The translations under genes were made by a program, and so were the position numbers. The notes below the pieces were generated by a model that did no database searches, had not been told where the DNA came from, and saw only the letters and a program-made list of their open reading frames with translations. This document shows, in pieces, positions 2,740-29,436 of a stretch of 39,320 nucleotides of DNA. This DNA comes from a virus. The stretch is taken from positions 1 to 39,320 of IMG/VR virus record IMGVR_UViG_3300045988_148041; one strand, written 5' to 3'. Within the stretch, counting starts at the first letter, position 1; each line of letters starts with the position of its first letter.

Positions 2740-3157
2740 CTGTTATGTTAACGTTAATCGTTAAATCATCACGAATGCCTTGATCTAGCTTTTGCTTTTC
2801 AAGCTCGAATTTCTTCTCTTTCAACTCCAACTCTTTAGCTTGTAGTTCAATCTCATTCGCTTCCTTACGGTCTTTCCATCCGTGTGGTCTGCGGTTCTTC
2901 AACCAAAATATCATAGCTGTAACATTACCATTGATAGCCGCTTTGTATAAGGCATTCTCAACCTCGTAATCGACCACCTCTTTACCCTTTTTTAAGGCAG
3001 ACGAAAGCGCCGAGTATTTATTTTTATATTCTCGAAATGTCGAATAGGCAATGCCGAGATTATATGCAATTTGCTCATCGGTTAGGCCATCACGCGCCCA
3101 TCCTTCAACTAATATTAAATTATCTTTAACATGTGTATCGTATTTAGACTTCGCCAT
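2720..3157 (-). CDS. terS: terminase small subunit (HTH DNA-binding)
   Basis: Begins MAKSKYDTHVKDNLILVEGWARDGLTDEQIAYNLGIAYSTFREY (HTH). Sits directly upstream of terL. Probable start is the ATG at 3157, after the RBS AAGGTGGTG, rather than the TTG at 3178. Confidence 0.6.
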   Translation of the reverse strand: MAKSKYDTHVKDNLILVEGWARDGLTDEQIAYNLGIAYSTFREYKNKYSALSSALKKGKEVVDYEVENALYKAAINGNVTAMIFWLKNRRPHGWKDRKEANEIELQAKELELKEKKFELEKQKLDQGIRDDLTINVNITGDNDAT

Positions 3158-3184
3158 AGCTTCACCACCTTGCTGCAATAAAAA

Positions 3185-4328: not shown

Positions 4329-4952
4329 TTATTTTCTTTTTGATTTCTTCACGTGACTAATCTTAACCATTAAGTCCACGACATTTATTGCGGTTTCAGT
4401 TAACTCCTTATTATCTTGAATTAAACCATTTTGATTTAATCTCACAAGTTGCGCTCTACTTACCATAATTAAATTATCTACTGCGATATTGCTTTTGTCG
4501 CCATCAGCGAATATCAGCGCATAACCTTTGGGTACGGCTCCGTTGTGTTGTTCCCAAACCCACCGATGCTTTAATTTCCACACATTAGGGTCTGCAACCT
4601 TTACCTCTGTATACCCGTCGCGATTAACTCTCTCACTGCCTACTGGTCGATACGTTGCTGGTCTGTGCCCCTTTTTAAACGCCGTCTCTTTGCCATAATT
4701 AAACCCTGTCTTGCCTTTATTGAAAGGCACACTACCTTTTTGGAATTGCCCTGTAAAACCTGTTTTAAAGCCATTCGACTTTATGGCTCTCGATATTTGC
4801 GTCACCACTAATTCAAGCCCGAATTTCTCATTAACTAATTCCATAATCTCTTTATAATGCCTACCTGGGGTTATTTCCCCTAAGTAGGCTTTTTGTTCTT
4901 CCGTCCAAACATGTCTTACTGAATTTTTAACTCCTTTTGGTCTCCCTGTCAT
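4329..4952 (-). CDS. HNH endonuclease (HNH_3-type), packaging-associated
   Basis: C-terminal motif RDGYTEVKV...HRWVWEQHNGAVPKGYALIFADGDKSNIAVDNL. Sits upstream of terS, as is typical of cos-type phages. Confidence 0.75.
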   Translation of the reverse strand: MTGRPKGVKNSVRHVWTEEQKAYLGEITPGRHYKEIMELVNEKFGLELVVTQISRAIKSNGFKTGFTGQFQKGSVPFNKGKTGFNYGKETAFKKGHRPATYRPVGSERVNRDGYTEVKVADPNVWKLKHRWVWEQHNGAVPKGYALIFADGDKSNIAVDNLIMVSRAQLVRLNQNGLIQDNKELTETAINVVDLMVKISHVKKSKRK

Positions 4953-10522: not shown

Positions 10523-11329
10523 TTACAAAATAACTTCATCTTTAAATCGATAATTCTTGCTACTGTCTTTTCCAACCTGGATGCAGTAACTTTTTGCTTT
10601 TTCTTTCATCCGCCCAGCAATCGCTTCATCAATATCTCGCAAATCATTTAGTAGCAATTCTGATGAGATAATTGTCACCGAGTTAGTGTTATAACGCTCG
10701 TTGATTAATTGAAATGCGATATTTACATCACTGTCCGTCACTTTACCTTTGAACAAATCGTCAATGTATAAGATTTCCGCTTTCGCATACTCATTAAAGA
10801 ATTCATCACGATCAAGGTCATATTTCATTCGTTTTAATCTATCCACGAACTCATTCCAAATCATGTATTTAACTTGACGATACTCCTTTAATCTTTGGTT
10901 ACAAATCGAAGCGCATACCATCGACTTACCAATACCGCTTTGTCCTAAAGCCATAAACCACTCTGTATCGGCTTTTAAGATGTAGTCCTTAACTTTATCC
11001 CTCATAGCAACTTGAAACGGCTCTACGGCCTTAAAATCGCGTAATTTGTAGGATAACAACTCACCCATTCCGCTTAATTCTGCATTTTTCATTGCTTTTC
11101 GTACTTTCATACACTCGCAATGGACGATATATGATGAATCTGTTTCTTTATGGTAGTGAGTAATAAACCCTCGATTTAAGCATTTATCGCATTCAAAGCC
11201 TTTTAGGCTTCCAGTTCGTTCATTGTCTAGCTCGACTAATAACTCTGTTGTCGATTTGTCTTTAGAATATGAGTAATCCAAATTCATCTCGCTTGTTGCC
11301 TTCTTCATCAACTCTGAAAGACTTTGCAT
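10523..11329 (-). CDS. DnaC/IstB-like AAA+ helicase loader with an N-terminal zinc finger
   Basis: Walker A GQSGIGKS, Walker B LYIDDL. N-terminal CDKC...HCEC. Confidence 0.65.
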   Translation of the reverse strand: MQSLSELMKKATSEMNLDYSYSKDKSTTELLVELDNERTGSLKGFECDKCLNRGFITHYHKETDSSYIVHCECMKVRKAMKNAELSGMGELLSYKLRDFKAVEPFQVAMRDKVKDYILKADTEWFMALGQSGIGKSMVCASICNQRLKEYRQVKYMIWNEFVDRLKRMKYDLDRDEFFNEYAKAEILYIDDLFKGKVTDSDVNIAFQLINERYNTNSVTIISSELLLNDLRDIDEAIAGRMKEKAKSYCIQVGKDSSKNYRFKDEVIL

Positions 11330-12059
11330 TTTGTTTCTCCCCCTTAACAGTCTTGTTATCTAACGGAAATATCCCTTTCCATCCGTAAATAATTGATTTT
11401 TCTAAAATTTGAATTTTTTCTAAATCGTTCGTTGCTATTTTGTCTAACTTGTTTACAATCAACTGAATAGCTTTTAACGTTGGATAAGGTTTTAGCGTCT
11501 TTCTCATTTCCAAAAAGTCATTGAGTGTGTTTAATAAATTTTCGTTAGTTGTATAAGAAGTAAATATGTTTTGGAAATCAACGTCAGTTGGTTTCTTTTT
11601 TATATTTTTTTCTTTTTTATTATTAAATTTATTATTAAATACTTTATTATTATCCTCCGTGATTTCGTGGATAGGGGTATCCATTATTTCGTGGATAGGT
11701 CTCCCGTTTTTGATGGATAGGTCTCCATTATTTTTTCCATACCCACCAGGCAAATATCGAGTCCCAAACGCACTCAGATAAATCCGTCTTTGCTGAATTT
11801 CTTTGCTATTTTCTTTGTAAATTAATTCAGTTTTGATGTAGTCTTTTTTCTCTAATGTCGAAACCCATTTGGAGATTGTCTTTTTATCGACACCGTATAA
11901 ATTAGAGAAATAACTATTCGAAGCCCAACAATAACCTCGTTCATTTGTCATGGCTGTTATTTCAGCAAATAGTAATTTAGCGTTAGGCGTTAACTCTTTG
12001 TCATATCTAACGTTGGCTGGAATAATTGCGAAAAAATTTTTTTGCTCTGCATCCATCAC
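11262..12059 (-). CDS. phage replisome organizer / DnaD-like replication initiation protein
   Basis: N-terminus NFFAIIPANVRYDKELTPNAKLLFAEITAM is the characteristic motif. A linker region contains internal iterons (see the repeat feature at 11661-11730). Confidence 0.75.
   Translation of the reverse strand: MMDAEQKNFFAIIPANVRYDKELTPNAKLLFAEITAMTNERGYCWASNSYFSNLYGVDKKTISKWVSTLEKKDYIKTELIYKENSKEIQQRRIYLSAFGTRYLPGGYGKNNGDLSIKNGRPIHEIMDTPIHEITEDNNKVFNNKFNNKKEKNIKKKPTDVDFQNIFTSYTTNENLLNTLNDFLEMRKTLKPYPTLKAIQLIVNKLDKIATNDLEKIQILEKSIIYGWKGIFPLDNKTVKGEKQNAKSFRVDEEGNKRDEFGLLIF
11661..11730. repeat. probable phage origin: three ~22-25-bp iterons inside the replisome-organizer gene
   Basis: Direct repeats gatttcgtggataggggtatccatta / tttcgtggataggtctcccgttttt / gatggataggtctccatta with core GTGGATAGG. 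They encode the PIHEIMDTPIHEIT repeat in the protein. Confidence 0.6.
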
Positions 12060-13363: not shown

Positions 13364-13720
13364 ATGATAAATAGAATCAAAAATTTGCGTAAAGAAAAAG
13401 GTTTATCACAACAAGAGTTTGGTTCTCGAATTGGCGTGTCCCGAAGTCACATAGCTGCATTTGAAAATGGGAACTCTGATATCAGTTCACGCGTGATCCG
13501 TGATATTGCTAATGTATACGAGGTCAACGAAGAATGGTTATTGACAGGTGAAGGGGAGAAATACAAGCCACGCACAGACGATGATGAGTTAGCAATCCTT
13601 ATCGGTAGTTTAATGGCTGAGGATGACGAATTTAAAAAAAGAGTCATCAAAGCAATGTTAAAGCTAGATGACTCAGAATGGCGTTTTGTAAAAAACATCG
13701 TTCAAAAAATTTGTGAATAA
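13364..13720 (+). CDS. XRE-family HTH repressor (CI-like)
   Basis: KEKGLSQQEFGSRIGVSRSHIAAFENGNSDIS is an HTH_3 motif. One of very few plus-strand genes. Divergent from the early operon. Confidence 0.7.
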   Translation: MINRIKNLRKEKGLSQQEFGSRIGVSRSHIAAFENGNSDISSRVIRDIANVYEVNEEWLLTGEGEKYKPRTDDDELAILIGSLMAEDDEFKKRVIKAMLKLDDSEWRFVKNIVQKICE

Positions 13721-13760: not shown

Positions 13761-14075
13761 TTCATAACGTAACTCAAAATCATATTAGTGATAAAGTCGA
13801 TAAATTTATCATCGTTAACTTCGTCATTAATAAGTTCAAGTAGTTTCTCTTTCTTATTACTCATAACCCCAAATCATCCTTGCCCTTTTTTTATAATGTT
13901 ATTTTACAAACAATCGTTCGATACGTCTACCCATTTTGACAAAAAATAACATCATTCAACAAGTATTATAATCCTTTTTTTGATAATTTACAACGTATGA
14001 TAGTATATGCTTTTAAAAGTGGTAAATATGTATTATTATTACAATTTGTGCTAGTAATAACACTAGGAGGTAATA

Positions 14076-14398
14076 TGAATCAAATCAGTTATAAAATCAA
14101 AGCGTTGCGTGAGTTGAATAGTTTAAAACAATCAGACTTAGCAAGAGCTTTAAATGTTTCTCAACAGTTGGTATCGAATTGGGAAAGAGGCGTCCGACTT
14201 CCTGATTTGAATACTGTCAATCAAATGACTAAATATTTTAATGTGTCCTTTGATGATTTGTTGAGTAACAAACCAATCAAACCTGCTGTTATGAATGATT
14301 ACATTATTCAACACGAATTACTTCCTAAATTATCCGAAGAGGATAAAGATTTAATTTATCACATGATTACATTCATAGCGACACGGAAGAAGAGTTAA
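14076..14398 (+). CDS. second XRE-family HTH regulator
   Basis: RBS AGGAGG then ATG at 14076. LKQSDLARALNVSQQLVSNWERG is an HTH motif. The ORF-track start at 13997 is probably too far upstream. Confidence 0.6.
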
Positions 14399-14417
14399 TC
14401 TCTTCTTCTTTTTTTTG
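14385..14417 (+). terminator. intrinsic terminator
   Basis: Stem GGAAGAAGAG / CTCTTCTTC, loop TTAAT, then T9. Confidence 0.7.
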
Positions 14418-14435: not shown

Positions 14436-14747
14436 TTAAAGGACTGTTATCTCTGTTATTTGTTCTAAGCCATCTTTGATATGCATTGTTTTTAAATCTA
14501 TGAGCTTTTTATTTAATAATTCAGACATTATTTTATCGATTTCTGTTTTTGGCTCGCTAAAACATTCGTATAAATGTTTATTCGTGATGATATCGTCATC
14601 CGCAAAAGTAAGCAGCGTTAAATACACCGCAATTTCCTCACATTTGAGACCTTGATTAAAAAACGTCCCATCCTTAACTAAAATATTGTTTTCAGTTGTC
14701 ATATGTTTTGATTTATTTATCACTTTAATTTTTGTGTTTTTAAACAT
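14436..14747 (-). CDS. hypothetical protein downstream of the iteron array
   Basis: 103-aa ORF. No recognisable motif. Confidence 0.4.
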   Translation of the reverse strand: MFKNTKIKVINKSKHMTTENNILVKDGTFFNQGLKCEEIAVYLTLLTFADDDIITNKHLYECFSEPKTEIDKIMSELLNKKLIDLKTMHIKDGLEQITEITVL

Positions 14748-14838
14748 TTCCAGTTCTCCTTTTTTTCGCGCGCGTGTAGTTAATAATATAAATAAATATA
14801 TTTAACAGCTTATTTATTTAACTACAATATATATTTTT

Positions 14839-14968
14839 GGGTAAACTTTTTAGTTTATAGGGGGTAAACTTTTTAGTTCAGTGGGTTAAACTCAAAAGTT
14901 TAGTGGGTATATACGGGGTTAAACTTTTTAGTTCAGTGGGGGGAGGGTTAAACTTTTTAGTTTAGTGG
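14839..14968. repeat. iteron array: five direct repeats of about 22 bp (plasmid-type origin or iterated protein-binding site)
   Basis: GGGTAAACTTTTTAGTTTATAG (14839), GGGGTAAACTTTTTAGTTCAGTGG (14861), GTTAAACTCAAAAGTTTAGTGGG (14885), GGGGTTAAACTTTTTAGTTCAGTGG (14915), GGGTTAAACTTTTTAGTTTAGTGG (14945). Spacing is 22, 24, 30 and 30 bp. Intergenic, flanked by AT-rich DNA. Confidence 0.7.
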
Positions 14969-14982
14969 GCTTCTCCACAAAA

Positions 14983-15342
14983 TTACTCGAAGTGTTTGCG
15001 GTCAAGCATATCGTACAATAGTGTTTTATAAGCAATCCCTGTTCTGTAGTATGTGAATGTCCCTTTACTATTTTTTTCAAGATGAAATTCTAACACTTTG
15101 CAGTCGCATAATTTTTTAAACCTTCTTCTCAAAGCTATTTTGTTATTTATTTTTAAAATAGGTAAGTCGTCTATGACTTTTTCGTAATTGACCCAATAAT
15201 AGACAGTGTCATTAAAAATTGCTTCTTGCATGCGATCTGTATTTCTAAAGTCAACGAACCAACGTAACAAAATAAGGTCATTCATATCCAACCCATAGGC
15301 TACAGCTATTTTTTGGTGATAATCTAAAATTGATAATTTCAT
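14983..15342 (-). CDS. small putative DNA-binding protein adjacent to the iterons (candidate iteron-binding initiator or regulator)
   Basis: Probable start MKLSILDYHQKIAVAYGLDMNDLILLRWFV after the RBS AGGAGGA. Basic C-terminal half. Function inferred from position only. Confidence 0.35.
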   Translation of the reverse strand: MKLSILDYHQKIAVAYGLDMNDLILLRWFVDFRNTDRMQEAIFNDTVYYWVNYEKVIDDLPILKINNKIALRRRFKKLCDCKVLEFHLEKNSKGTFTYYRTGIAYKTLLYDMLDRKHFE

Positions 15343-15380
15343 ATAAAAAAGTCCTCCTGGTGCTATAAATTTAGTAGCAA

Positions 15381-15563
15381 ACAAAAGGACTCCCACAAAA
15401 GTTTAACCAAAAATAGAATAAAAGGGTTGAAAATTGGTTAAAATGATATTATAATTACAAACGAACTTAATAAAAAGGTCATTAATTACGTTTGTAATTA
15501 ATTTATATTTTCTTTCGCTATTAGACTTCCACTCGGCTGCCAAACTTTGTGGGAGTCTTTTCA
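15381..15563. promoter_or_regulatory. regulatory region with nested inverted repeats
   Basis: AAAGGACTCCCACAAAAGTTT (15383-15403) is the near-reverse complement of AAACTTTGTGGGAGTCTTT (15543-15561). An inner 9-bp inverted repeat TTACAAACG...CGTTTGTAA (15448-15492) sits between them. Confidence 0.4.
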
Positions 15564-15611
15564 TTTACTAAAAAGAATGTTATCAAATATTGTCACAAAT
15601 TACAATAAAAA

Positions 15612-15646
15612 AAATAAGGGTTATCCACAACGGATACCCTTTTTAT
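15612..15646. terminator. bidirectional intrinsic terminator after the FtsK/Replic_Relax operon
   Basis: GGGTTATCC-ACAAC-GGATACCC followed by TTTTTATT. An A-run on the opposite side. Confidence 0.6.
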
Positions 15647-15675
15647 TATGTCCTTTTATTTACCACGTATACTGT

Positions 15676-16278
15676 TTATCTAATAAATGTATACTTCAAG
15701 TTAGAGAAGTTGCTCCAATCAGGTTTTATCCATATGCACCCGATATCAGGTTTTTTCTCGCACACCGATACCAAACACATCGGATGTTGCATTTTATATC
15801 GTCCTGCTTTCAAATCGTTATATAGACGATTATATGCATCTGTGTTAGTGAATGGCTTTGTTAAATCTATCTCAACGAGTGCGCAATAGGTTTCATCACC
15901 GTACTTAAAAGTTACCAACATATCGGGTCTGATATGGTATCTTTCCTCCAACTTCTTATACTCTACCTCGGTTTCATCTAGTATGATTTCGAAACCATCG
16001 ACTTTCATCCTGCTTAAAAAATCAGTCATCATCAATCTATGTTTAGTTTTGGTTGGATTTTTGCCGATGTAGTAAATATAAGATTGCCCCACGTACTCGC
16101 GCACTCTATGGACTTGTTTTTGGTGCTTGATGATCTCTTGCGTTCTCTTGTGCGCAACATTTAATGATGATTTCTCATTACGTGTCCAGTAAATCAATCG
16201 TGAAGCTATTTGTGCATTTAAGATAAAGTTTTTTTCCAAATATCTGATTAACTCTAAATCTCTAGTTGTTAACCCCAT
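15676..16278 (-). CDS. Replic_Relax (replication-relaxation) family protein
   Basis: N-terminal winged helix LTTRDLELIRYLEKNFILNAQIASRLIYW...SLNVAHKRTQEII. C-terminal nuclease-like RPDMLVTF..CALVEIDLTK. Overlaps the upstream FtsK-like gene by 17 nt. Confidence 0.6.
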   Translation of the reverse strand: MGLTTRDLELIRYLEKNFILNAQIASRLIYWTRNEKSSLNVAHKRTQEIIKHQKQVHRVREYVGQSYIYYIGKNPTKTKHRLMMTDFLSRMKVDGFEIILDETEVEYKKLEERYHIRPDMLVTFKYGDETYCALVEIDLTKPFTNTDAYNRLYNDLKAGRYKMQHPMCLVSVCEKKPDIGCIWIKPDWSNFSNLKYTFIR

Positions 16279-17467
16279 AAATTAACACTTCCCCTTTTAA
16301 ATTGCTCATTTTCGGCTCATTTTTAGGCTTTTCGACTTCGGTAGTAGTTTTAACAACAGATGGTTTTTTCGAGGTTCTAACGGTCTTTAAATGGTCTTTA
16401 ATGATGTTTTCAACGTCATCGTCAGATGTTATTAGCGTTTGCCCTTCTTGAATTTGCCCACCTAGACTAAATAATGCCCGTCCTTTAGCTGCTAATTTTT
16501 CTGCTCCCGGTTGGTCTAGTATCACGCTAGAGTTAACAGAATCGACTGTGTGAAAACAAATTCTATTATCGATGTTAGCTTTAATTCGTGAGTCGATGAT
16601 TTTAGAGTCAAAGCGTTGGCTTGTGAAGATATAGAACACTCCAACAGCGCGACTAATGGCTAGCGACTTAATAAGTGTCGTTTTCAAATCTTTGCTTTGA
16701 TCAATCAAAATTGTGAACTCTTCTATGATGACGAATTTCGGTTTTATTTTTTTATCATTATTTTTATTATGATCCAACCAATTTTTGGAGTCTGAGTCGT
16801 TGATTATATTCAATCTATCCTCTATCTCAGTGTAAATTCTATTAATCTCCGTCTCTGCCTTATCAGGTGCAATAGTGAATGAATTGGTTTGTCTAATTCT
16901 TTTGAATGAATTTAATTCAACCCCACCTTTGAAATCGAATAATTCAAATTCACTTTCAGGATAGTTGATTAATATTTGTAAAATTAAACTGGTCAGAAAT
17001 ACCGATTTCCCCCATCCTGTCGCTCCCGCAATTAGAGTGTGGGGCATCGAAACGAAATCAAGTGTAATCCCTTTAAAATCGCCATTCTCTACGCCTATTG
17101 CGGCTGCTACTTGCATCCCAGGTCTATCATTTGTAATGACTTTATCAAAAGGTATGCTCGAAGGTAGTTTTTTTGTTTCTTCTTTTAATTTTATAAAGTA
17201 ATTAAAATTATTATTGATGATCTCAACTTCACTTTTAACGATATTTTCAATTTTCCCTTTTAAATCTTGTAGGTCTTTGAAACTCTTACCGTTGTTTAAT
17301 CCTATTCCGTATGTTTTCGTTTTTCTGTCGTGAAATTTGATGTAACCTATCCCCTCTAGTAGTTGACTCAACGGTGATGACATATCTTTAATCCCTCCAC
17401 CTAATTCCGATAATTTTAAAGCTCCTAACATAACCGTACCAATCGCCCAAGGCATCCACCATACCAT
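16262..17467 (-). CDS. FtsK/SpoIIIE-family membrane-anchored DNA translocase-like ATPase (TcpA/TraB-like)
   Basis: N-terminal TM helix WWMPWAIGTVMLGALKL. Walker A GATGWGKSVFLTSLI. Walker B KFVIIEEF. RBS GGAGG 7 nt before the ATG. Confidence 0.75.
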   Translation of the reverse strand: MVWWMPWAIGTVMLGALKLSELGGGIKDMSSPLSQLLEGIGYIKFHDRKTKTYGIGLNNGKSFKDLQDLKGKIENIVKSEVEIINNNFNYFIKLKEETKKLPSSIPFDKVITNDRPGMQVAAAIGVENGDFKGITLDFVSMPHTLIAGATGWGKSVFLTSLILQILINYPESEFELFDFKGGVELNSFKRIRQTNSFTIAPDKAETEINRIYTEIEDRLNIINDSDSKNWLDHNKNNDKKIKPKFVIIEEFTILIDQSKDLKTTLIKSLAISRAVGVFYIFTSQRFDSKIIDSRIKANIDNRICFHTVDSVNSSVILDQPGAEKLAAKGRALFSLGGQIQEGQTLITSDDDVENIIKDHLKTVRTSKKPSVVKTTTEVEKPKNEPKMSNLKGEVLIYGVNN

Positions 17468-17558
17468 AACAAAACCTCCAAATGTTTAATTATTAGTAAG
17501 TAATTGGTCATTGGAGGTATTTTTATGTAATTTTGTTTTGCGTGTATAACCAAATATT

Positions 17559-17640
17559 GGAGCGCGAACGGAATTACTTTTTCTCCGTCCCCCCGGAACG
17601 CTCGTTCCCACTCGCTCCCCCCTTTTAATGCGCTTCGCTT
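17559..17640. other. GC-rich, C/G-tract island in an AT-rich intergenic region (possible structured RNA or operator)
   Basis: GGAGCGCGAACGG...TCCGTCCCCCCGGAACGCTCGTTCCCACTCGCTCCCCCC. Inverted repeat GGAACG-CT-CGTTCC. Outer GGAGCG/CGCTCC. Two C6 tracts, which are G6 on the minus strand. Confidence 0.3.
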
Positions 17641-17768
17641 TTTGTGGCATTATCAAGGTTTTTGGCTATTGGTTTCGTGGTTTATCGCTTATACTCAACT
17701 TACTGCTGACCAATACTTAACTTATAGTAGATTATATGAAGTTTGGTGTAAGTTAGTACCAAGAGTTT

Positions 17769-18311
17769 TCAATTTCTCGAATTAATTTTTTGGAGTAGTT
17801 GTGATCCGTCTACTAGCTGCACTTTGCTGAGCCTTGCTTCTTGCCTAGCGTCTTCTGTGAACTTAGATGTAGTGACAAAAATCGCTTCGGCGTTGTGAGG
17901 ATGACACGCACCAACTAACTTTTGAACCAAAGGTCTCCCGACAGCATTAGATTGGGCGAATTGTTTGCATTCTACAAAGTAAGTTTTAGTCCCTTTGTAC
18001 ATCACAAGATCTTTACCACCATCACCACTTTTGCGTGTCTGAAGCACGGTGTACCCTTGCGATTTATAGTAATCAGCTACCACACGCTCGAATTGATAGG
18101 GATTGACCTTCATTAAATCGTTCATCGTCATTCTTGAATATGGTTTTTTGAATATATTTTTAAAATCCTCGCCTGATAGATGAATTGCCACTGTCGCTAT
18201 CGCGATGATCAGGAACATCATAATAACAGTAGGATTGAGTATTTTCCCGAAGGTTATGATCGTAAATAAAATTAAAATTGCTTTGACTGTTTTTTTGCTC
18301 ATCAGCATCAC
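17769..18311 (-). CDS. membrane-anchored Mrr-type (PD-(D/E)xK) restriction-endonuclease-domain protein
   Basis: Two N-terminal TM helices (ILILFTIITFG, IMMFLIIAIATVAI). Mrr_cat-like core NPYQFERVVADYYKSQGYTV...GDGGKDLVMY...YFVECKQF. Confidence 0.6.
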   Translation of the reverse strand: MMLMSKKTVKAILILFTIITFGKILNPTVIMMFLIIAIATVAIHLSGEDFKNIFKKPYSRMTMNDLMKVNPYQFERVVADYYKSQGYTVLQTRKSGDGGKDLVMYKGTKTYFVECKQFAQSNAVGRPLVQKLVGACHPHNAEAIFVTTSKFTEDARQEARLSKVQLVDGSQLLQKINSRN

Positions 18312-18375
18312 CTATCGTTAGGATCGCCAAAAAAAGAGCGGATTATACACAATAGAATCCTGTTTTTAGATGCAA

Positions 18376-18404
18376 ATAAAAAAAGACTTGGAATAACCAA
18401 GTCT
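18376..18404 (-). terminator. intrinsic terminator of the parMR operon
   Basis: On the minus strand: AGACTTGG-TTATT-CCAAGTCT followed by TTTTTTT. Confidence 0.7.
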
Positions 18405-18618
18405 ACCAGTCTTTTTCTTTAAATAGATCCTTTGTTTCTTGTGGCACATTGAATGCGTCCTCTTTGATGTTGCCACTTACTTTATCAGCTAACGTTGTTA
18501 AAATAAAAGAAGTAAAGTTGCGTTTGTCAGCTTTAGCTGCTTCCTCGATAGCTTGTAACAACGCTTCGTCACCTTCATAAAAAGTGATCGTCTTTTTAGC
18601 AATTATTTTACGCGCCAT
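18403..18618 (-). CDS. parR: ParR-like ribbon-helix-helix partition adaptor
   Basis: 71 aa. Beta-strand KTITFYEGDEAL then helices LQAIEEAAKADKRNFTSFILTTLADKV. Lies immediately downstream of parM. Confidence 0.5.
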   Translation of the reverse strand: MARKIIAKKTITFYEGDEALLQAIEEAAKADKRNFTSFILTTLADKVSGNIKEDAFNVPQETKDLFKEKDW

Positions 18619-18622
18619 ATTA

Positions 18623-19585
18623 TTACCCCTTTTTGATCAATGTGTATTTATAGAATCCTCTTGCATTCGCGATTTGTGCTTCGGGATAAACTATCGCATT
18701 TGAACGTAATTTTATGTGATTTTTAATAGCCAAAGCTCCACCACCAGTATAGATAATTCTGTCATAGTGTGCTAAATTAATCCCACTTCGTCTGATAACA
18801 GTTTCTAAGGCTGATACGAAGTCTGTTTTAACTAAATCTAATTCTTCGGTGAAATCAAATGTTTCGCCGTATTTATGAATAATTGGCGAGATATCATCGC
18901 TCACATCGTTATGTGTAAAATGATAATCAGTCCCTTTGTATTTGTTGTTCATTTCACGAACTAAATCATTTACGATATCCATACAACCAGTGTCGTCACC
19001 TGCTAATTTCTCGACTTGCAACCCATTTGTGGCAAGTATATCCGTAGTTGAGTAACCAATATCAATCACAACGTAATTGAATTTGTTACGGTTGTTAACG
19101 ATTTGCAGTTTTTCATTGAAAACGAAGTCACATAGAGTCCCTAACGGCTCACACGCAACGAAAACATCTTGGATATTGATGACATATTCCTCAACAACAT
19201 CGTCAATTATAACGTTTATTGCATGGCGGCCAGTCAATTTTTTAACAATCTGTTTCTTTAGGTCGATTTTTTCAAAGTCCCTGCAAGGAACTCCAATAGT
19301 TAATGATACATTGCGCTCAGTGATGACCTGAGTAATCGCGATTAATAATTCTAAAAGATATTCTTTGCTTAAATAACGGTCAGAGCTACGTCCACCACTA
19401 CTGATCCCCGTTGTATCTAAAGTATATTGTTTCCCTTCATATTCATAGATTGTCCCAATACCACCTACGATATTAAATTCGCTTCCTGTCAAACGTTTTA
19501 ATTTGTTAGGGTATGTCAACTCTGTGTCATTGGATACAACTTTAATGAAGCCGTTTGCAACCTCTAGTCCTATTTTTTGACTCAT
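18623..19585 (-). CDS. parM: ParM/StbA-family actin-like segregation ATPase
   Basis: Phosphate-1 motif IGLEVANGFIKVV. Phosphate-2 motif VVIDIGYSTTDILA. Adenosine motif YTGGGALAI. Confidence 0.7.
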   Translation of the reverse strand: MSQKIGLEVANGFIKVVSNDTELTYPNKLKRLTGSEFNIVGGIGTIYEYEGKQYTLDTTGISSGGRSSDRYLSKEYLLELLIAITQVITERNVSLTIGVPCRDFEKIDLKKQIVKKLTGRHAINVIIDDVVEEYVINIQDVFVACEPLGTLCDFVFNEKLQIVNNRNKFNYVVIDIGYSTTDILATNGLQVEKLAGDDTGCMDIVNDLVREMNNKYKGTDYHFTHNDVSDDISPIIHKYGETFDFTEELDLVKTDFVSALETVIRRSGINLAHYDRIIYTGGGALAIKNHIKLRSNAIVYPEAQIANARGFYKYTLIKKG

Positions 19586-19589
19586 TTTC

Positions 19590-19860
19590 GATTCCTCCTT
19601 AAACTCTTTCTAGTACATATTATGTTGCTATTTTAAAAAAATCAACCACTTTCTGTTTTTTTCTTGATAAAAACTTCTATTTTCAGTTTATATAAGAAAA
19701 AATAAGTCAATAACTAGATTATATACTTATGAAAAATAGTTATTATACGTATATAAAAAGGTTTTAACTATAAAAAATAAGAAAAAAACTTCTAAAAGAA
19801 GGTATCTTATGGTTATCCTCTGCATATAATGTACTAAGAAGCAAATGAAAGGGGAAATGC
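19590..19860. promoter_or_regulatory. AT-rich divergent control region (candidate parC centromere plus promoters)
   Basis: Reiterated TATATA(A/C) and AAAAATA(A/G)G words. TGcATATAAT at 19821-19830 precedes the plus-strand operon. Confidence 0.3.
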
Positions 19861-19863
19861 GGA

Positions 19864-20109
19864 ATGAAAAAAGATTTCTTAGATTGTAAAACGGTTAAAG
19901 AATGTGTTGAGTGGTATTTAGTAGAAACAGAAGGAAAAGAAAGAGATGTAGAGTTTGATCTAGGATTTATATCATCGTTGTTCGATAATCACTACTGGGA
20001 GCTAGTGGATGAAGCAGAAGAGTTGAAACTTGAAGCAGAACGTAAAAGCCGAATCGCAGAATGTTTGAAAGATAGTCAAGTGTTAGAAGATATCGTGGAG
20101 TGGGCTTAG
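19864..20109 (+). CDS. small acidic hypothetical protein
   Basis: 81 aa, rich in D/E. Confidence 0.45.
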   Translation: MKKDFLDCKTVKECVEWYLVETEGKERDVEFDLGFISSLFDNHYWELVDEAEELKLEAERKSRIAECLKDSQVLEDIVEWA

Positions 20110-20143
20110 GCTCACTCTTCACTTAAAATTGGAGGGATTAGTT

Positions 20144-20506
20144 TTGCGTTTAGATATTTGTAACGAAACAATCACGTGGAGTCGTTTAAATCAATATCCT
20201 AGAGTTTTTGAAACGTTTATGCACGACGTTATGTTAGACTTGACTGGCTGTAATGGGTTCGAGTTTTTAATAAATAATGGGGTTTACACCCTAGATGAAC
20301 CCTATTTAATTGAAAAAGAATTTATGGAAAGTTGGGTGAATGTAGCAAAAGATGTTCCAAACAAATTTTATTTGCACAAATTATGTTTAAATATATCCAA
20401 AAAATTAGTTTATGCGAAGTGTACTTATACCGACAAAGTCTTTTACGTCAAGTATGAAGTTGATATCCCCGGCGAAGATGTTGCAAGTGACGATCATATG
20501 CATTGA
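20144..20506 (+). CDS. hypothetical protein
   Basis: The RBS GGAGGG favours a TTG start at 20144 over the ORF-track start at 20129. Confidence 0.4.
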   Translation: MRLDICNETITWSRLNQYPRVFETFMHDVMLDLTGCNGFEFLINNGVYTLDEPYLIEKEFMESWVNVAKDVPNKFYLHKLCLNISKKLVYAKCTYTDKVFYVKYEVDIPGEDVASDDHMH

Positions 20507-20615
20507 TTAAAAGAATAAATTTAAAAGAAAGTTTTCGAAAATACTTGTAATTCATTCGCGAATGAGTTATATTATAAGTGTAACAGGGAATAACAAATCG
20601 AAGGGATGATAAAAT

Positions 20616-20816
20616 ATGAATAAATTTGAATTAGCGTGTGAATTAAGAGGAAAATACGATTTAGAAGAATTGCAACAAATGAAACTAGTTGCTACACCTG
20701 GTGAAGATATGGAACAAGAAGAAATTGAATCAGTGTGGGAATCAGGCGACGCTCACTACTTATTATTGGTTGACGAAGAAGATTGTAAATCAATTTACGA
20801 TAAATATTTAGCTTAA
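20616..20816 (+). CDS. small acidic hypothetical protein
   Basis: 66 aa (EDMEQEEIESVWESGD...). RBS AAGGGATGATAAAATATG. Confidence 0.45.
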   Translation: MNKFELACELRGKYDLEELQQMKLVATPGEDMEQEEIESVWESGDAHYLLLVDEEDCKSIYDKYLA

Positions 20817-20830
20817 TAGGAGGAATTGCC

Positions 20831-21304
20831 ATGATTAAAACTAAAGAATGGTTAATTGAGTCTCGCCAAAAGGCTGGGATTACCCAACAGCAACTTGCGG
20901 AACGTAGTGGAGTTTCGGTTCATGCTATCAGAAATATCGAGCAAGGAACTAGAGAAGGCTCTTCCGAGACATGGAAGGCGCTAATAACTGCATTAGAGAA
21001 TAGAACGTACACATTAGTTGAAGTGATAGAGGAACTAAAGGGTTACAAAATAGAGTATCAAACTATATACGGAATTATAGGTGGGTTAAAATATGATGAT
21101 TTTTCGCGTTTACACGATGATTTTTTCGCGGTAACAATCTTTAGAAATGATGACAATTTACAATTTTACGTTAACTTAAATAAAGAATTAATGTTCATAA
21201 AAAAATCTGATGTTAATTACAAGGAGTTCACATCATTCAATAATAAAGAGATAATCACGTTTTGCGATTCAGATGCAAGAACTGCTCATAGTTTAAAAAA
21301 ATAG
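20831..21304 (+). CDS. XRE-family HTH regulator with a C-terminal domain
   Basis: AGITQQQLAERSGVSVHAIRNIEQG is an HTH motif. Confidence 0.55.
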   Translation: MIKTKEWLIESRQKAGITQQQLAERSGVSVHAIRNIEQGTREGSSETWKALITALENRTYTLVEVIEELKGYKIEYQTIYGIIGGLKYDDFSRLHDDFFAVTIFRNDDNLQFYVNLNKELMFIKKSDVNYKEFTSFNNKEIITFCDSDARTAHSLKK

Positions 21305-21335
21305 GTATGTAATTAAAATCATAGTTCTAAATATA

Positions 21336-21361
21336 AAAACCACCTTTTTTGGTGGTTTTTA
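21336..21361. terminator. bidirectional intrinsic terminator between convergent operons
   Basis: AAAAACCACC-TTTTTT-GGTGGTTTTT. Confidence 0.75.
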
Positions 21362-21368
21362 TATTGTT

Positions 21369-22121
21369 TTAGCTATGAAATTTTTTGGTTTCTGATGAAT
21401 ATAAGATAGGATTTTTCGTTAAACCACAAGAATATACTTTATTGCATAATATTGATAAATAATCATCCACTGAACGTTGTCGTGTTATATTAGGTAAAAA
21501 TTGTTTAATTTTACGTTCCATTTGTGAATGATCGTATCCCTCTTTAAAGAATAATCTTGAAAAAGCCGTGATAAAATGGCTTTGCTTGTAGTTTCTAAAT
21601 TCATGGAACGATTCGAGGGCCATAAAAAATAATACCACAGAATCTAATCCATCTAACGACACTGCGCCTGTTCTAAATTCTCGTTTCAGTTGCGGTATAT
21701 TTTTTTCTTGAACGACAGATAATATCTTTAGAAAATCATTAATACTTATATCGAAATCGTTTGTGATTTCTGCTATTTTTAGATACTTCTCTTCTTTTAA
21801 TTCGCAATAGCGGTGAAGATAATCTGCATCATACCAACGTCTTCCACCATTAACATTAGCTCTTATTACGTCATCAATGCTATATCCATTCTCCATAATA
21901 TAATAGACGGGTAATTTCAAATATTCACACGCCTTAAATCTATGTTGACCATCGATAATTTCAAATTTTTCATTTACTGTAATTGGAATGATTAACTGTT
22001 TCTCCTTCATACTCTCAATTATTTGATTAAGATTCGTTGGATTTGTTCTTCTGTTTCCGCCCATGATTTTAAACAATGAGTAGTCGTTTGTTTTCATTAC
22101 ACTTGTGTAAACTTCAATCAT
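21369..22121 (-). CDS. ParB/Sulfiredoxin-like nuclease-domain protein with a DGQHR motif (DndB-like)
   Basis: EIIDGQHRFKACEYLKLPVYYIM. Confidence 0.55.
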   Translation of the reverse strand: MIEVYTSVMKTNDYSLFKIMGGNRRTNPTNLNQIIESMKEKQLIIPITVNEKFEIIDGQHRFKACEYLKLPVYYIMENGYSIDDVIRANVNGGRRWYDADYLHRYCELKEEKYLKIAEITNDFDISINDFLKILSVVQEKNIPQLKREFRTGAVSLDGLDSVVLFFMALESFHEFRNYKQSHFITAFSRLFFKEGYDHSQMERKIKQFLPNITRQRSVDDYLSILCNKVYSCGLTKNPILYSSETKKFHS

Positions 22122-22650
22122 ATTTGTACCCTCCTGTAATATACCACTTTCTATAATCTTTTCTTTTACAATCCTTGCATTGATTCAAGTGACCGTCTTT
22201 CATGCCTTTGTTTTTGTTAAATTCGGACAGCGGTTTAGTTTCTCCACATTTGTTGCATTTTTTTGTTGCTTCTGAAATGGTTGCTTCTGAAATGGTTGCT
22301 TCTGAAATGGTTGCTTCTGAAATGGTTGCTTTCCTTTGGTTATAAGCATCTTTATACTTTTTTGCGCAAAACCTACAATAAGATTTAACGCCACTTTTGC
22401 TTTTTTTGTGTTTATTAAAGTAACTTAAAGGCAAGATTGTTTCGCATTGCGAACAAGTCTTGTAACCAGCAGGAGCTACGTCGTTGATTATCGGCCTTTT
22501 TAAGTTCAATTCACTTGCTTTAGTGTAGATCGATTTAATATCTCTTTCTAAAGCGTTCGATATTTCTTTTGTTGTGAACTCTGAACTTTTATATGCATAA
22601 CGCAAAAAAACAATCTCTTCTTCAGTCCATAATTTTCGCTTTTTTTCCAT
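22114..22650 (-). CDS. zinc-ribbon repeat protein with an ATISE pentapeptide tandem repeat
   Basis: Two CxxC-x(20-25)-CxxC modules (CSQCETILPLSYFNKHKKSKSGVKSYCRFC and CNKCGETKPLSEFNKNKGMKDGHLNQCKDC). N-terminal HTH-like WTEEEIVFL. The ATISE repeat is encoded by a 15-bp tandem repeat. Confidence 0.5.
   Translation of the reverse strand: MEKKRKLWTEEEIVFLRYAYKSSEFTTKEISNALERDIKSIYTKASELNLKRPIINDVAPAGYKTCSQCETILPLSYFNKHKKSKSGVKSYCRFCAKKYKDAYNQRKATISEATISEATISEATISEATKKCNKCGETKPLSEFNKNKGMKDGHLNQCKDCKRKDYRKWYITGGYKYD
22265..22330. repeat. 15-bp tandem repeat (GTTGCTTCTGAAATG), 4.4 copies, inside the CDS
   Basis: Read directly from the sequence. Confidence 0.9.
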
Positions 22651-22795
22651 ATTTATTTTCTAACCTCTCTGTATCTGCTATCACCAATTCCGTTATGTAA
22701 TCTTTAGCGGTCATATTAGATATTACGGCGTTCATTTTGATTTGTTGTTTAAGATCTTCTTTAATTCTAATTGTCAAAGTTGTTGTTTTATCCAT
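22622..22795 (-). CDS. ribbon-helix-helix (CopG/Arc-like) small protein, 57 aa
   Basis: Not in the ORF track. RBS GGAGGTG then ATG. MDKTTTLTIRIKEDLKQQIKMNAVISNMTAKDYITELV shows an RHH pattern. Overlaps the start of the downstream gene. Confidence 0.4.
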   Translation of the reverse strand: MDKTTTLTIRIKEDLKQQIKMNAVISNMTAKDYITELVIADTERLENKYGKKAKIMD

Positions 22796-22945
22796 GCTGC
22801 ACCTCCAAATAAAAAGATACTATTTAATATACTAATGGTCTAGTTGTAAGTAATGGGTTCAAACCCTTTTTAAGGTTTTATTTGAAGTTATTAGAATTGC
22901 ATTTCTATCGCGATAAACATAAAGTGCGATTAAATTTAGAAATTA

Positions 22946-23083: not shown

Positions 23084-23113
23084 ATAAAAAAAGAGGCAAG
23101 CATAAGCTCGCCT
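23084..23113 (-). terminator. terminator of the lysis cassette
   Basis: On the minus strand: AGGCGAGC-TTAT-GCTTGCCT (one G-U pair) then CTTTTTTT. Confidence 0.6.
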
Positions 23114-23688
23114 TACTCAAAAATTTTATAGTTAATATCTAGTGATAATACCGTGTTATAGTAGCTTGACACGACATACTGAAGATCAGGGCTAGACTTT
23201 TTACACCAAAGCACGTGCGTTGGGTTTAAAGTGCTATCTATACCAGCTTTTAACACCGCATTTGATTTGCTCGTTTGTGGCGTGTAATTAGGGTATTCGA
23301 TATCTGTATCGCACTCAATATGTAAATGTGCTCCTGATGATGCACCTGTATTTCCATAGTAGCCGATACGCGTGTCTTTCGTCACGTTCTGTCCTTGTTT
23401 AACTCGAATTTTATCTAAATGGTAATAACGCATAGCAATGTCTTTAATTGCACCAGTTGGAAGCTCACAATCTTTATACACGATAACGACTACATTACCA
23501 CCTGAAGGATGCCAACCACAATGAGTCACTATTCCGTGTCCACTAGCCCAAATAGTTGTGTCTTTGCGTTTTTCATCCGTACAATCAACTCCGTAATGAG
23601 TATAGCCAAATTCTCTTTTATAAGCTGAGTTCTTGTATCCTGCCGTAACACGCATTGAATTGATAGGTAAAATTAAACGTTGTGACAT
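23113..23688 (-). CDS. M23-family peptidase (endolysin, catalytic domain only)
   Basis: HYGVDCT...GIVTH...GNTGASSGAHLHIECD, with the HxH and HxxxD zinc motifs. Confidence 0.65.
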   Translation of the reverse strand: MSQRLILPINSMRVTAGYKNSAYKREFGYTHYGVDCTDEKRKDTTIWASGHGIVTHCGWHPSGGNVVVIVYKDCELPTGAIKDIAMRYYHLDKIRVKQGQNVTKDTRIGYYGNTGASSGAHLHIECDTDIEYPNYTPQTSKSNAVLKAGIDSTLNPTHVLWCKKSSPDLQYVVSSYYNTVLSLDINYKIFE

Positions 23689-24129: not shown

Positions 24130-25143
24130 TTAAGCTACATTTAGAAATGCTTCAATTAAATCATCAGCATCGCGATCATCATACAACGACACCATGTCTA
24201 ATGACTCCCAATTCACAATCGCTTTGATTAATTCAGGCGGATATCCTGCGCGACCTAACTCTGTACAGAAATTATGGCGTAGACAATGGAAATAAAAACT
24301 CACGTCAAACCAATTTCCAAACGTAACCGCCCACGATTTCAAAGTTTGGGTTTTCAACGGAACCCACTCTTCCGTTTTTTTATCATATTTAACAAATAAA
24401 TGCTGGATTTTATCGGGCACACCTAATCGCTTACGTTCTTCTAACCATAAGTTCAAATAAGGCTCAAATTTATCGATTAAAACGTATCTAGGTATTTGTT
24501 TACCCAACTTTCCTCTGCCCTTTGTACGGAGCTTTTCAGGCGTTTTCCAAAATTTATTCCACTTAACGCAATCGTCTGTGAAATAATTGCACTTGAATTG
24601 GACCAATTCCGATACTCGGCTACCACTAGCCCAGGCTAGAGCGAAAGCACACGCTTTTTGGTATTGTTTTTTCTCTACTAAGTGATCTAAGAATTTTTGG
24701 CACTGCTCATCTGAAAGAACTGTTTTTTCTCGCACATTTTCTCTAGCAGGAGCTTCGATTTTTAAAATAATATTTCTGAAACCTTTCCACTTAGGTTCTT
24801 CATCTAAAAAGTTTTCAATGTATTTACTTAAGCTAGATAACGATGATCTAACGCGTTTAATTCGCGCCGGAGATAACCCTTCACTTAACATATAGCCTTG
24901 GAAATTCAAGTAATCATTTTTCTTAACCTCGCAAAAGTCTTTATTTTGGCACTTATCACGGAACCAACTAAAGAAGATATATAAATCACTTCGATAATTT
25001 GTGACCGTTACAGGGCTTCTATCGACTCCTGTGCAATACATTAAGAAACTGTCAACCAACTGTAAATTTTCAGGATTAATCGTGCTAATGTCCGAACTCG
25101 CTAGCACACGCTTTGTTTTTCTAGTATTTTTTCTTTTACCCAT
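24130..25143 (-). CDS. tyrosine site-specific recombinase (Xer/Cre-like integrase or resolvase)
   Basis: SAM-like N-domain. Catalytic residues present: SGSRVSEL (R), HCLRHNF (H-x-x-R), and the nucleophile in ...MVSLYDD. No extended arm-binding N-terminus. RBS GGAGGG. Confidence 0.8.
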   Translation of the reverse strand: MGKRKNTRKTKRVLASSDISTINPENLQLVDSFLMYCTGVDRSPVTVTNYRSDLYIFFSWFRDKCQNKDFCEVKKNDYLNFQGYMLSEGLSPARIKRVRSSLSSLSKYIENFLDEEPKWKGFRNIILKIEAPARENVREKTVLSDEQCQKFLDHLVEKKQYQKACAFALAWASGSRVSELVQFKCNYFTDDCVKWNKFWKTPEKLRTKGRGKLGKQIPRYVLIDKFEPYLNLWLEERKRLGVPDKIQHLFVKYDKKTEEWVPLKTQTLKSWAVTFGNWFDVSFYFHCLRHNFCTELGRAGYPPELIKAIVNWESLDMVSLYDDRDADDLIEAFLNVA

Positions 25144-25155
25144 AATATCAACCCT

Positions 25156-25197
25156 CCGTACAACGTACTATAGTAAATACTATGATTTGTTGTACGG
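25156..25197. other. nested palindrome next to the recombinase start: candidate recombination core (att, lox or dif-like) or operator
   Basis: CCGTACAAC-[GTACTATAGTAAATACTATGATTT]-GTTGTACGG. 9-bp perfect arms. The inner TACTATAGTA is a 10-bp palindrome. Direct repeat of TACTAT. Confidence 0.45.
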
Positions 25198-25231
25198 AAA
25201 GTTGCCATTAAAATCTATTTTTTAGTAACTT

Positions 25232-28624: not shown

Positions 28625-29122
28625 CTATAGTTCCCACTCAGTGATTTCGAAGTGGAGGTTCTTAACGCGAATTGCGTTAGATGTAGCGTTAGTCGCCCAA
28701 AATCGCACTTTAACTGCGTTGTAGTAGGTTGATGTGTTGCCACTTGTTAAGGTCTGCGTTTGGTCTGTATTCCCTGTGTAGTTCTGATCTATGGTGCTAG
28801 AATTTAACAAAGTCCAAGAACTACCGCTATTTGTACTGCCGTAAATCTCTACGTGCATTGTTCGAGGGTTAATCCCACCATCAACAGCTTTCCATTGTTT
28901 CCCCCACACAAACTTTCTAAATTTATATTTGTCACCAAATACCTTTGTAAACTCTTTAACCTCGTCGCCGCGCTCTGTGTAGCTTTGAGATAATAAATAG
29001 TTTTCTAATCGGCCTGTAAAAATAGCGCTATAAACTAATTGAGTGCCGTAGTATACCTTTTTGACTAATTGAGTGCCGTAGTATACTTTTTGTGATTTGT
29101 TGTTACCGTAATAAGCCGTCAT
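28625..29122 (-). CDS. tail / baseplate structural protein
   Basis: Lies inside the tail module. Contains an internal 30-bp duplication (KVYYGTQLVK x2). Confidence 0.4.
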   Translation of the reverse strand: MTAYYGNNKSQKVYYGTQLVKKVYYGTQLVYSAIFTGRLENYLLSQSYTERGDEVKEFTKVFGDKYKFRKFVWGKQWKAVDGGINPRTMHVEIYGSTNSGSSWTLLNSSTIDQNYTGNTDQTQTLTSGNTSTYYNAVKVRFWATNATSNAIRVKNLHFEITEWEL

Positions 29123-29130
29123 GTCTACAC

Positions 29131-29436
29131 CTACCAACTAAATGTGATATACCCACTAGCGCCTGTTAAACCTGCACCACCTCGAACTTGCATATTATTG
29201 ATTTTTGTTGAATTAGTCGATGTTGTGGCACTGTCAGCGTTAACAGAACTTAACACTTTTACGTCATTACCGTTATGAGTGATACGCCCTGTTGATGAAT
29301 TATAGCCAAATGATGCTGAGGCGTGAGTTTTGTCTAGCTTTCCATCATCTAACGCCTTGATACCTTCATCCATATTGTTTAGATTTTCTACATTAATCGG
29401 TGTATTTTCCTGCCAATTCACTTTTGTATAAGCCAT
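29131..29436 (-). CDS. tail / baseplate structural protein (Ser/Thr/Gly-rich)
   Basis: 101 aa in the tail module. Confidence 0.4.
   Translation of the reverse strand: MAYTKVNWQENTPINVENLNNMDEGIKALDDGKLDKTHASASFGYNSSTGRITHNGNDVKVLSSVNADSATTSTNSTKINNMQVRGGAGLTGASGYITFSW

Follow-up and report, generated by a model that had tools for sequence, protein, structure and literature searches.

How does the phage recorded in IMG/VR as IMGVR_UViG_3300045988_148041 persist in its lysogens? The window (the whole stretch of DNA analysed, positions 1 to 39,320 of that record) is the complete genome of a temperate siphovirus; since its first and last 99 bases form an exact terminal repeat (1 to 99 and 39222 to 39320), it represents a circularly assembled (or circularly permuted) genome of 39,221 bp. 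In integrating Firmicutes siphoviruses the interval between repressor and lysin is the usual site of the lysogeny module. Here that interval, the segment from 14436 to 22800, holds genes of a plasmid type, and an initial annotation of the DNA had taken it for the backbone of a phage-plasmid that might also move between cells by a conjugation-like route. Our reading is that the lysogenic state is probably a low-copy circular plasmid and not an integrated prophage, the phage adding a lineage to the Firmicutes ParM-type phage-plasmids already known. We infer this state, like each of the activities proposed below, from the observed gene content, folds, repeats, synteny and circular assembly. The proposal of a low-copy plasmid is well supported by comparative and structural evidence for both partition and an iteron replicon.

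The segment is contiguous, as had been annotated, and lies between the plus-strand repressors and the lysis genes (M23 lysin and holin). The repressors are divergent from the early lytic genes, and this immunity region forms the left edge of the module. Strong terminators had been said to flank the segment on both sides. A good plus-strand terminator (14385 to 14409) does abut the left end, whereas the nearest strong one on the right (23094 to 23113) lies 300 bp outside; terminators are also found inside (18384 to 18404 and 21330 to 21365). The accompanying claim that an integrase-attP module has been replaced beside the repressor is correct in that a plasmid kit sits there, but a tyrosine recombinase gene lies outside, 1.3 kb beyond the right end of the segment.

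The features that point to a plasmid replicon are at the left end of the segment:

14983 to 15342, minus strand: Rep119, a protein of 119 amino acids
about 14838 to 14964: five direct repeats of about 22 nt (iterons)
14770 to 14836: AT-rich stretch of 67 bp (18 % GC) with a 17-nt inverted repeat, a candidate DNA-unwinding element of a plasmid origin
15397 to 15415: partial iteron, inverted, in the rep promoter/leader region, a candidate autoregulation site
14436 to 14747, minus strand: wH103, a winged-helix-like protein of 103 amino acids, 3′ of the iterons, with a weak match to TrmB (E 0.002)

The iteron locus noticed in the initial annotation is real. Its repeats have the core CCACTRAACTAAAAAGTTTAACCC, and the pattern TAAACTN5GTTTAMCCC is matched five times, all in the array, against 0.24 matches expected by chance. 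The locus shows what defines an iteron replicon, at least three direct repeats of about 20 bp beside an AT-rich region and an initiator gene. We place the start of Rep119 at the ATG at 15342, which reads as lying behind an AGGAGG ribosome-binding site; the resulting length agrees with that of its homologues (114 to 120 amino acids). The modelled fold is a winged helix of the RepA_N/DnaD type, resembling the N-terminal domains of DnaD and of a staphylococcal plasmid RepA, and there is a weak match to phrog_428. Iterons of RepA_N replicons lie inside the rep gene. The window differs from the RepA_N theta replicons of pSK41, pAD1 and pCF10 in having no Pfam RepA_N match, in its non-coding iterons and in the separate open reading frame (ORF) of 103 amino acids that follows them. 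The order of gene, iterons, AT-rich stretch and second ORF nonetheless appears to resemble a RepA_N replicon gene split around its origin. In the theta-type replicon we propose, Rep119 would bind the five downstream iterons beside the AT-rich unwinding region and would probably regulate its own synthesis through the sixth, inverted half-site at its promoter. wH103 may be the second half of the split initiator or, possibly, an accessory protein. Judged by the predicted functions, this replicon is distinct from the lytic one, a minus-strand module (10523 to 12059) of a DnaC-like loader (10523 to 11329) and a DnaD-like initiator (11262 to 12059), which lytic growth would use.

Comparison with relatives, whose gene contexts were taken from IMG/VR and metagenome assemblies (cited by L numbers where they need to be told apart), links the repeats to Rep119. 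Every Rep119 homologue examined has its own iteron array on its 3′ side. The iteron core is the same at 89 % Rep identity and differs at 67–72 % (CCTACTTTAAAGTAG...), a co-variation that a DNA-binding protein and its sites would be expected to show. L005, L020 and L021 also encode wH103, which L022 lacks. Rep119 and wH103 align neither to the HTH_36 or RepA_N initiators of relatives nor to the DnaD-like protein of the window, and are thus alternative replicons rather than diverged copies. TraX is known to bind five direct repeats, and we considered the five repeats as the binding site of RR200, the MOBC-like protein encoded further along the segment. This was rejected; the repeats travel with Rep119, being absent from L003 and L006, which carry RR200 without Rep119, and present on phage-like contigs of 105–127 kb with no FtsK or RR200 genes in the stretches examined.

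Three of these large phage-like contigs are L005 (1 to 17729), L020 and L021, of 105,860, 126,931 and 125,055 bp. They carry genes for an antirepressor, a methylase, a guanylate kinase and an RNA ligase. They also encode a Rep119 homologue accompanied by its own iterons, together with one ParM locus or two; in L021 the edge of the stretch examined additionally encodes tyrosine recombinases. They are possibly much larger phage-plasmids that share the Rep119 replicon type.

A low-copy plasmid also has to be partitioned, and candidates for all three parts of such a system are found together:

18623 to 19585, minus strand: ParM-type actin-like ATPase
18403 to 18618, minus strand: ParR-like adaptor of 71 amino acids, ribbon-helix-helix (RHH) type, directly 3′ of parM and with the terminator at 18384 to 18404
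19586 to 19863: divergent intergenic region of 24 % GC, with 22-bp tandem units (19722 to 19779) and flanking repeats of modest score, a candidate parC centromere with promoters

Of the parMR pair that had been annotated, ParM is clear. It matches ALP_N (E 5.8e-11), MreB-like_C and the phrog_691 ‘partition protein’ (E 6e-44), as well as NF010498 (E 2.9e-19, below that model's cut-off). The closest solved structure is the ParM 3js6 (E 1.6e-6), and the protein is 27–28 % identical to ParM of Paenibacillus larvae and Bacillus (putative) plasmid prophages, including pBWB403; an exact-protein look-up returned nothing. Its partner is less certain: the 71-residue product has a weak RHH-type match (TacA1, E 0.0064), and its position is kept in relatives. 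The arrangement suggests type II partition, in which ParM filaments would push plasmid copies apart through the RHH adaptor bound to the AT-rich repeats upstream.

The recombinase is found outside the segment, together with a possible site of action:

24130 to 25143, minus strand: Xer-like tyrosine recombinase (PF00589 and SAM_1), between tail fibre and holin
25143 to 25210: imperfect palindrome with 33-nt arms (76 % complementary), directly 5′ of the recombinase gene

The best models for the recombinase are XerC, XerA, XerD and XerS, at 40–54 bits and all below their cut-offs of 220–335 bits. The palindrome has a single copy in the genome and is intact in L026, a fragment from another sample that is 96–99 % identical and has the same phage context; it is a candidate recombination site. 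A single Xer-like recombinase with an imperfect palindrome directly 5′ of its gene recalls XerS/difSL, where difSL adjoins xerS. The window protein differs in scoring far below the equivalog cut-offs, and its palindrome, as read from the sequence, has the longer arms. We consider the recombinase most likely to be a multimer (dimer) resolvase, which would resolve multimers at the palindrome beside its gene. Inversion of the tail fibre by this enzyme was rejected because the site occurs only once. Relatives of the recombinase include large virulent lactococcal phages; an exact-protein look-up gave nothing. In Firmicutes plasmid prophages Xer-type recombinases and ParM systems are typically found together, and their place is at times among the tail genes.

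A tyrosine recombinase next to a site that occurs only once could also be an integrase with its attP, and the whole segment can be reread on that basis. The phage would then integrate in the ordinary way, ParM and ParR would position DNA during lytic growth, and the repeats would be operators to which Rep119 binds as a regulator. Several observations weigh on this side and against a plasmid. Virion DNA that is circularly permuted would be assembled from a metagenome as a circle just as readily, so that the assembly does not discriminate. Rep119 is one small winged-helix domain with no sequence match to a named Rep family in Pfam, NCBIfam or the PDB sequences, and ParR and parC were assigned from position and weak matches. 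Actin-like systems of integrated prophages can also serve lytic replication; AlpAC of the Corynebacterium prophage CGP3 is one such system. Against integration, the recombinase is Xer-like and lies among late genes, far from the repressor, and the iterons and AT-rich stretch directly after the Rep119 gene have the layout of an origin. No integrated copy was found among the RR200 clusters or in scans for the recombinase site, which returned one near-identical phage fragment (L026) and nothing in IMG/VR. Close relatives carry small serine resolvases beside a plasmid-type Rep (RepA_N or HTH_36) in place of the tyrosine recombinase, and the matching architectures described next are those of real plasmids. 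On balance we regard an ordinary integrating phage as quite improbable.

The initial annotation had called the combination of genes one without a described precedent. This does not hold, since the layout of phage B83 and a circular Paraclostridium plasmid match it, and FtsK and Replic_Relax genes have been remarked upon beside partition genes in papers on Bacillus phages. Bacillus phage vB_BtS_B83 was shown experimentally to be a circular plasmid prophage. Like the window it is a siphovirus with ParM and a ParG-like RHH adaptor, an Xer-type recombinase and a Rep between endolysin and immunity genes; the ParM proteins of the B83-type Firmicutes plasmid prophages (IEBH, phiS58/Waukesha92 and the pBWB403 group) are homologous to that of the window at 27–28 % identity. 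B83 differs in having no nucleotide similarity, another host lineage, a large single Rep and no counterpart of the Mrr, FtsK and Replic_Relax genes described below; in the window, moreover, the recombinase is placed beyond the lysis genes by the tail fibre, and the initiator is a 119-residue domain followed by iterons. The second match, a circular 35,430-bp plasmid of Paraclostridium bifermentans, combines structural genes of a siphovirus with a lysin, ParM, a tyrosine recombinase and an FtsK-like protein 32 % identical to that of the window.

Nucleotide searches with the segment against phage and plasmid collections returned nothing. At the protein level RR200 has 96 clusters of homologues, and many siphovirus contigs of about 40 kb share one gene order: tail, holin, lysin, ParM, small adaptor, Mrr, FtsK-like, RR200, initiator, repressors, lytic replication. 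The same synteny on many independent contigs led us to reject a chimeric assembly. Within this order the maintenance region is very modular, with ParMR, Rep-iteron units and resolvases being exchanged. ParM ranges from 71 % identity down to copies that tblastn does not detect and in which ALP_N is still present. The initiator slot is occupied by Rep119 with iterons, by a RepA_N protein or by an HTH_36 protein. In several relatives the tyrosine recombinase is missing and a gene for a small serine resolvase adjoins that of the initiator; L007, the tail fibre end of which is 96 % identical to that of the window, is one of them. The relatives examined have no integrase beside the repressor and no bacterial flank. 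Chromosomal context is likewise absent from the RR200 clusters, all 96 of which are on contigs of 40.3 kb or less; contigs in metagenomes are generally short, and the missing flanks are therefore only moderate evidence for a plasmid. One relative, L017, encodes a 109-residue protein with a Spo0A C-terminal domain (15259 to 15588), which hints at phage interference with the sporulation control of the host.

The RR200 clusters include some named Turicibacter sp. and T. sanguinis, making Turicibacter, a gut bacterium, probably the host. Phage-plasmids are increasingly seen as bridges between phages and plasmids, and those characterised in Firmicutes come almost all from Bacillus and Clostridium-type hosts. 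A plasmid prophage here would add Turicibacter, a gut commensal on whose phages little has been published, to these hosts.

Between the replicon and the partition genes lie three further genes, referred to here as the trio, and a non-coding element:

17769 to 18311, minus strand: membrane-anchored Mrr_cat protein with a restriction-endonuclease fold
17560 to 17635, minus strand: G-rich non-coding element (58 % GC) in the gap from the Mrr to the ftsK-like gene, with a conserved TATAAT on its upstream side
16262 to 17467, minus strand: ATPase of the FtsK/SpoIIIE family
15676 to 16278, minus strand: RR200, a Replic_Relax-type protein (PF13814, MOBC superfamily), the gene overlapping the ftsK-like gene by 17 bp

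The annotated membrane-bound Mrr nuclease and FtsK-like protein both stand. Mrr_cat is matched at E 1.1e-28 in a protein with a hydrophobic N-terminus (residues about 7 to 50), and PF01580 at E 4.5e-16 in the ATPase, where the Pfam FtsK_SpoIIIE match spans residues 132–331. The ATPase is 32 % identical to TcpA, the coupling protein of pCW3 (E 1e-27), and among solved structures TcpA (6o1z, E 2.6e-24) comes ahead of FtsK (E 5.6e-17). It is equally similar to the FtsK-like protein of Bacillus phage DZ1, and FtsK-like proteins of this kind occur in 401 phage records, 276 of them Bacillus. No 19-residue stretch in its N-terminus reaches a Kyte-Doolittle hydropathy of 1.6, in contrast to the transmembrane anchor of TcpA. 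In actinomycete TraB-type motors for conjugation of double-stranded DNA a C-terminal winged helix reads clt repeats; Pfam detects no DNA-binding domain in the K/E-rich tail of the ATPase, some 65 residues long.

The name Replic_Relax for the third protein is borne out only indirectly, by its family, motif and fold; the window protein itself has no Pfam match even at E ≤ 1. PF13814 is matched by 24 of the 29 RR200 family members (best E 2.8e-8), and the motif RPD...VExDxTK is invariant in the family. The predicted structure has a poorly modelled, all-helical N-terminal part followed by a PD-(D/E)XK nuclease domain, and as modelled it agrees with the MOBC arrangement of a PD-(D/E)XK core behind an N-terminal winged helix. 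PF13814 has been treated as the MOBC relaxase superfamily, the prototype of which, TraX of pAD1, combines an N-terminal winged helix with a restriction-endonuclease-like active site. None of the Pfam or NCBIfam relaxase models picks up the window protein itself. tblastn with RR200 found nothing in phages and one weak match in plasmids, and the protein could not be aligned to the product of the 201-codon gene that follows ftsK in Bacillus phage DZ1. A profile scan of a genome collection gave one 1.7-kb contig from a metagenome-assembled genome of goat colon.

The G-rich element ends in ATTCCGTTCGC. Its end motifs and G-richness are kept in L015/L016 and in L017 to L019, and a variant is found in L011/L012. 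Folding of the region indicated no significant structure (z −1.4). The element could be a cis-acting site or an mRNA leader.

The three genes are linked in every relative examined; in L022 the trio is reordered but complete. It is also found on an element that is not a complete phage. A member of the RR200 family is encoded on a 9,183-bp contig (JAQMIS010000039.1, L015) of the cultured T. sanguinis GCA_028325185.1, and a 77-bp terminal overlap shows that this contig is circular. It carries a small terminase subunit (TerS) 60 % identical to that of the window, a late-type (phrog_36-type) regulator, a small serine recombinase, a VapE-type primase-helicase followed by a repeat cluster (4475 to 4775), and the Mrr-FtsK-RR200 trio at 53–59 % identity. 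No structural (capsid or tail) genes, ParM or integrase were found on it. It looks like an episomal phage satellite of the phage group of the window; it anchors the assignment to Turicibacter and shows the trio travelling independently of ParMR. Its trio offers a tractable handle on the long-unexplained FtsK/SpoIIIE and Replic_Relax genes of Firmicutes phages.

From the proteins it encodes, the trio would process or move DNA at the membrane. Handling of the episome, by nicking for replication or by transfer at the septum or into the forespore, is a possible purpose, though we put it forward only tentatively; a septum or forespore role has been speculated upon for the SpoIIIE homologues of Bacillus phages.

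Defence is a second candidate, and one we hold to be rather doubtful. In this case the trio would not be a plasmid function at all and would act as a superinfection-exclusion or anti-phage system of the lysogeny region, attacking incoming DNA. The combination of two intact restriction-endonuclease-fold proteins with an ATPase of the FtsK/HerA superfamily is reminiscent of HerA-nuclease and Zorya-type systems, and PADLOC reports domain-level matches to SspH (E 4e-29), mad8 (E 1.5e-26), PDC-S02 (E 1.6e-18) and ZorD (E 3.5e-17). These are single components of unrelated systems, however, and no complete known defence system was matched. The interval between lysis and immunity genes is a classic slot for morons and defence genes, satellites are known as carriers of defence, and the trio is on a satellite-like element. 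Fast divergence and exchange (FtsK 28–60 % identical where ParM is 71 %) would also suit defence. Yet the trio occurs in every relative examined, unlike the variable cargo of a hotspot, and always beside partition and replication genes, and the RR200 family is known from plasmid relaxation and replication.

The third candidate is DNA transfer, conjugative or independent of a type IV secretion system (T4SS), and here the initial annotation, with its mobilisable phage-plasmid, went further than the evidence allows. The plasmid would also be mobilisable, with RR200 as a MOBC relaxase nicking an oriT and the TcpA-like ATPase as the coupling protein; export would use the T4SS of a co-resident conjugative element, or the ATPase would export double-stranded DNA by itself in the manner of TraB or TdtA. 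What speaks for this is homology, TcpA being the best solved relative of the ATPase and RR200 belonging by its family matches and invariant nuclease motif to the MOBC superfamily. The relaxase-like gene follows, and is overlapped by, that of the ATPase, the order seen in integrative mobilisable elements (IMEs), with the conserved G-rich element just upstream and with the trio recurring on the circular T. sanguinis element. A T4SS-independent parallel is found in Thermus ICEth1, where an FtsK/HerA-type motor (TdtA) and two nucleases drive DNA donation. Set against the TcpA and MOBC (TraX/MobC) modules of Firmicutes elements, the window shares the ATPase nearest to TcpA, the Replic_Relax partner and the order of coupling protein then relaxase, and differs in being phage-borne and in its obligatory membrane Mrr gene. 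Neither the window nor any relative was seen to encode VirD4 or a T4SS, conjugation genes are missing around the ATPase, and no oriT or nic site could be recognised. In a survey of streptococcal IMEs tcpA precedes relaxase genes, but the partner of MOBC relaxases was VirD4 and in no case TcpA. The ATPase N-terminus stays below the standard transmembrane threshold, RR200 itself falls below all Pfam and NCBIfam relaxase models, and the ATPase is just as close to the widespread FtsK-like proteins of Bacillus phages.

The distribution in those phages also tells against transfer. Adjacent FtsK/SpoIIIE and Replic_Relax genes occur in the same order as in the window in the Andromedaviruses Bolokhovo and Novomoskovsk, which are virulent. 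These copies are distantly related: the ATPase is about 27–30 % identical, RR200 has no BLAST similarity, and the set includes virulent phages with a truncated Replic_Relax and without ParM. The Izhevsk and Kirov phages have Replic_Relax with ParM and Xer. The authors of the Bacillus phage papers already tied the FtsK and Replic_Relax families to plasmid-prophage biology. We consider a transfer function unlikely; defence or handling of the episome would suit the observations just as well. More specifically, the trio could be a DNA-export or mobilisation device common to the Turicibacter phage-plasmid lineage and to the small TerS-carrying satellite, giving two routes, in capsids and from cell to cell; this we regard as slightly less likely still. 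The cell-to-cell route would pair a MOBC-type nuclease with a TcpA-type motor, a combination previously unseen, possibly with no T4SS. If the trio were such a device, phage, plasmid and mobilisable element would be blurred in one replicon. What likelihood is left falls to some other purpose of the trio.

The remainder of the segment is probably cargo:

19864 to 21304, plus strand: accessory operon of three small acidic proteins and a helix-turn-helix (HTH) protein of 157 amino acids
19864 to 20816, plus strand: the three proteins, strongly acidic (81, 125 and 66 amino acids), divergent from parM
21369 to 22795, minus strand: genes for an RHH protein (57 amino acids), a Zn-ribbon protein (178 amino acids) and a ParB_N-like protein (250 amino acids)

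The plus-strand operon is present as annotated. Its acidic proteins have no family match and are candidates for anti-restriction or anti-defence; the gene for the first is 90 % identical in the relative L007. The minus-strand genes also exist, but the backbone role ascribed to them is unlikely. The Pfam ParB_N match is sub-threshold (E 0.0052), the protein matches phrog_12305 at E 3e-24, and the Zn-ribbon/ParB-like pair sits in the early lytic operon of L004 and so is probably no backbone component. The operon is probably ordinary early-phage cargo rather than a partition system. Inside the Zn-ribbon gene a perfect 15-bp tandem repeat of 4.5 copies (22265 to 22331) codes for (ATISE)n, likely a contingency stretch or length-variable linker between two Zn-ribbon modules.

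Scans with PHROG and Pfam identified a full siphovirus gene set (packaging, head, tail, lysis, immunity), nearly all of it on the minus strand, in a genome of 36.5 % GC; Rfam and tRNA scans were empty. The early genes include SSB, RusA and Erf, and an HNH endonuclease gene is found beside the packaging genes. The main landmarks outside the segment are:

109 to 1422: portal
1498 to 2739: large terminase subunit (TerL)
2720 to 3178: TerS
13364 to 13720 and 13997 to 14398, plus strand: two Cro/CI-type HTH regulators (118 and 133 amino acids; HTH_3/HTH_19)
23113 to 23688: M23 lysin, the right neighbour of the segment
23691 to 24068: holin, a lysis gene
31188 to 33092: tape measure, with tail proteins extending to 25232

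Two repeats outside the segment were also noted. Short AT-rich tandem repeats cluster at 11592 to 11817, inside the gene for the DnaD-like initiator, and are probably the lytic origin embedded in its own initiator gene. In the tail region, a 30-bp unit is present twice (96 % match) at 29034 to 29092, within the ORF from 28625 to 29137.

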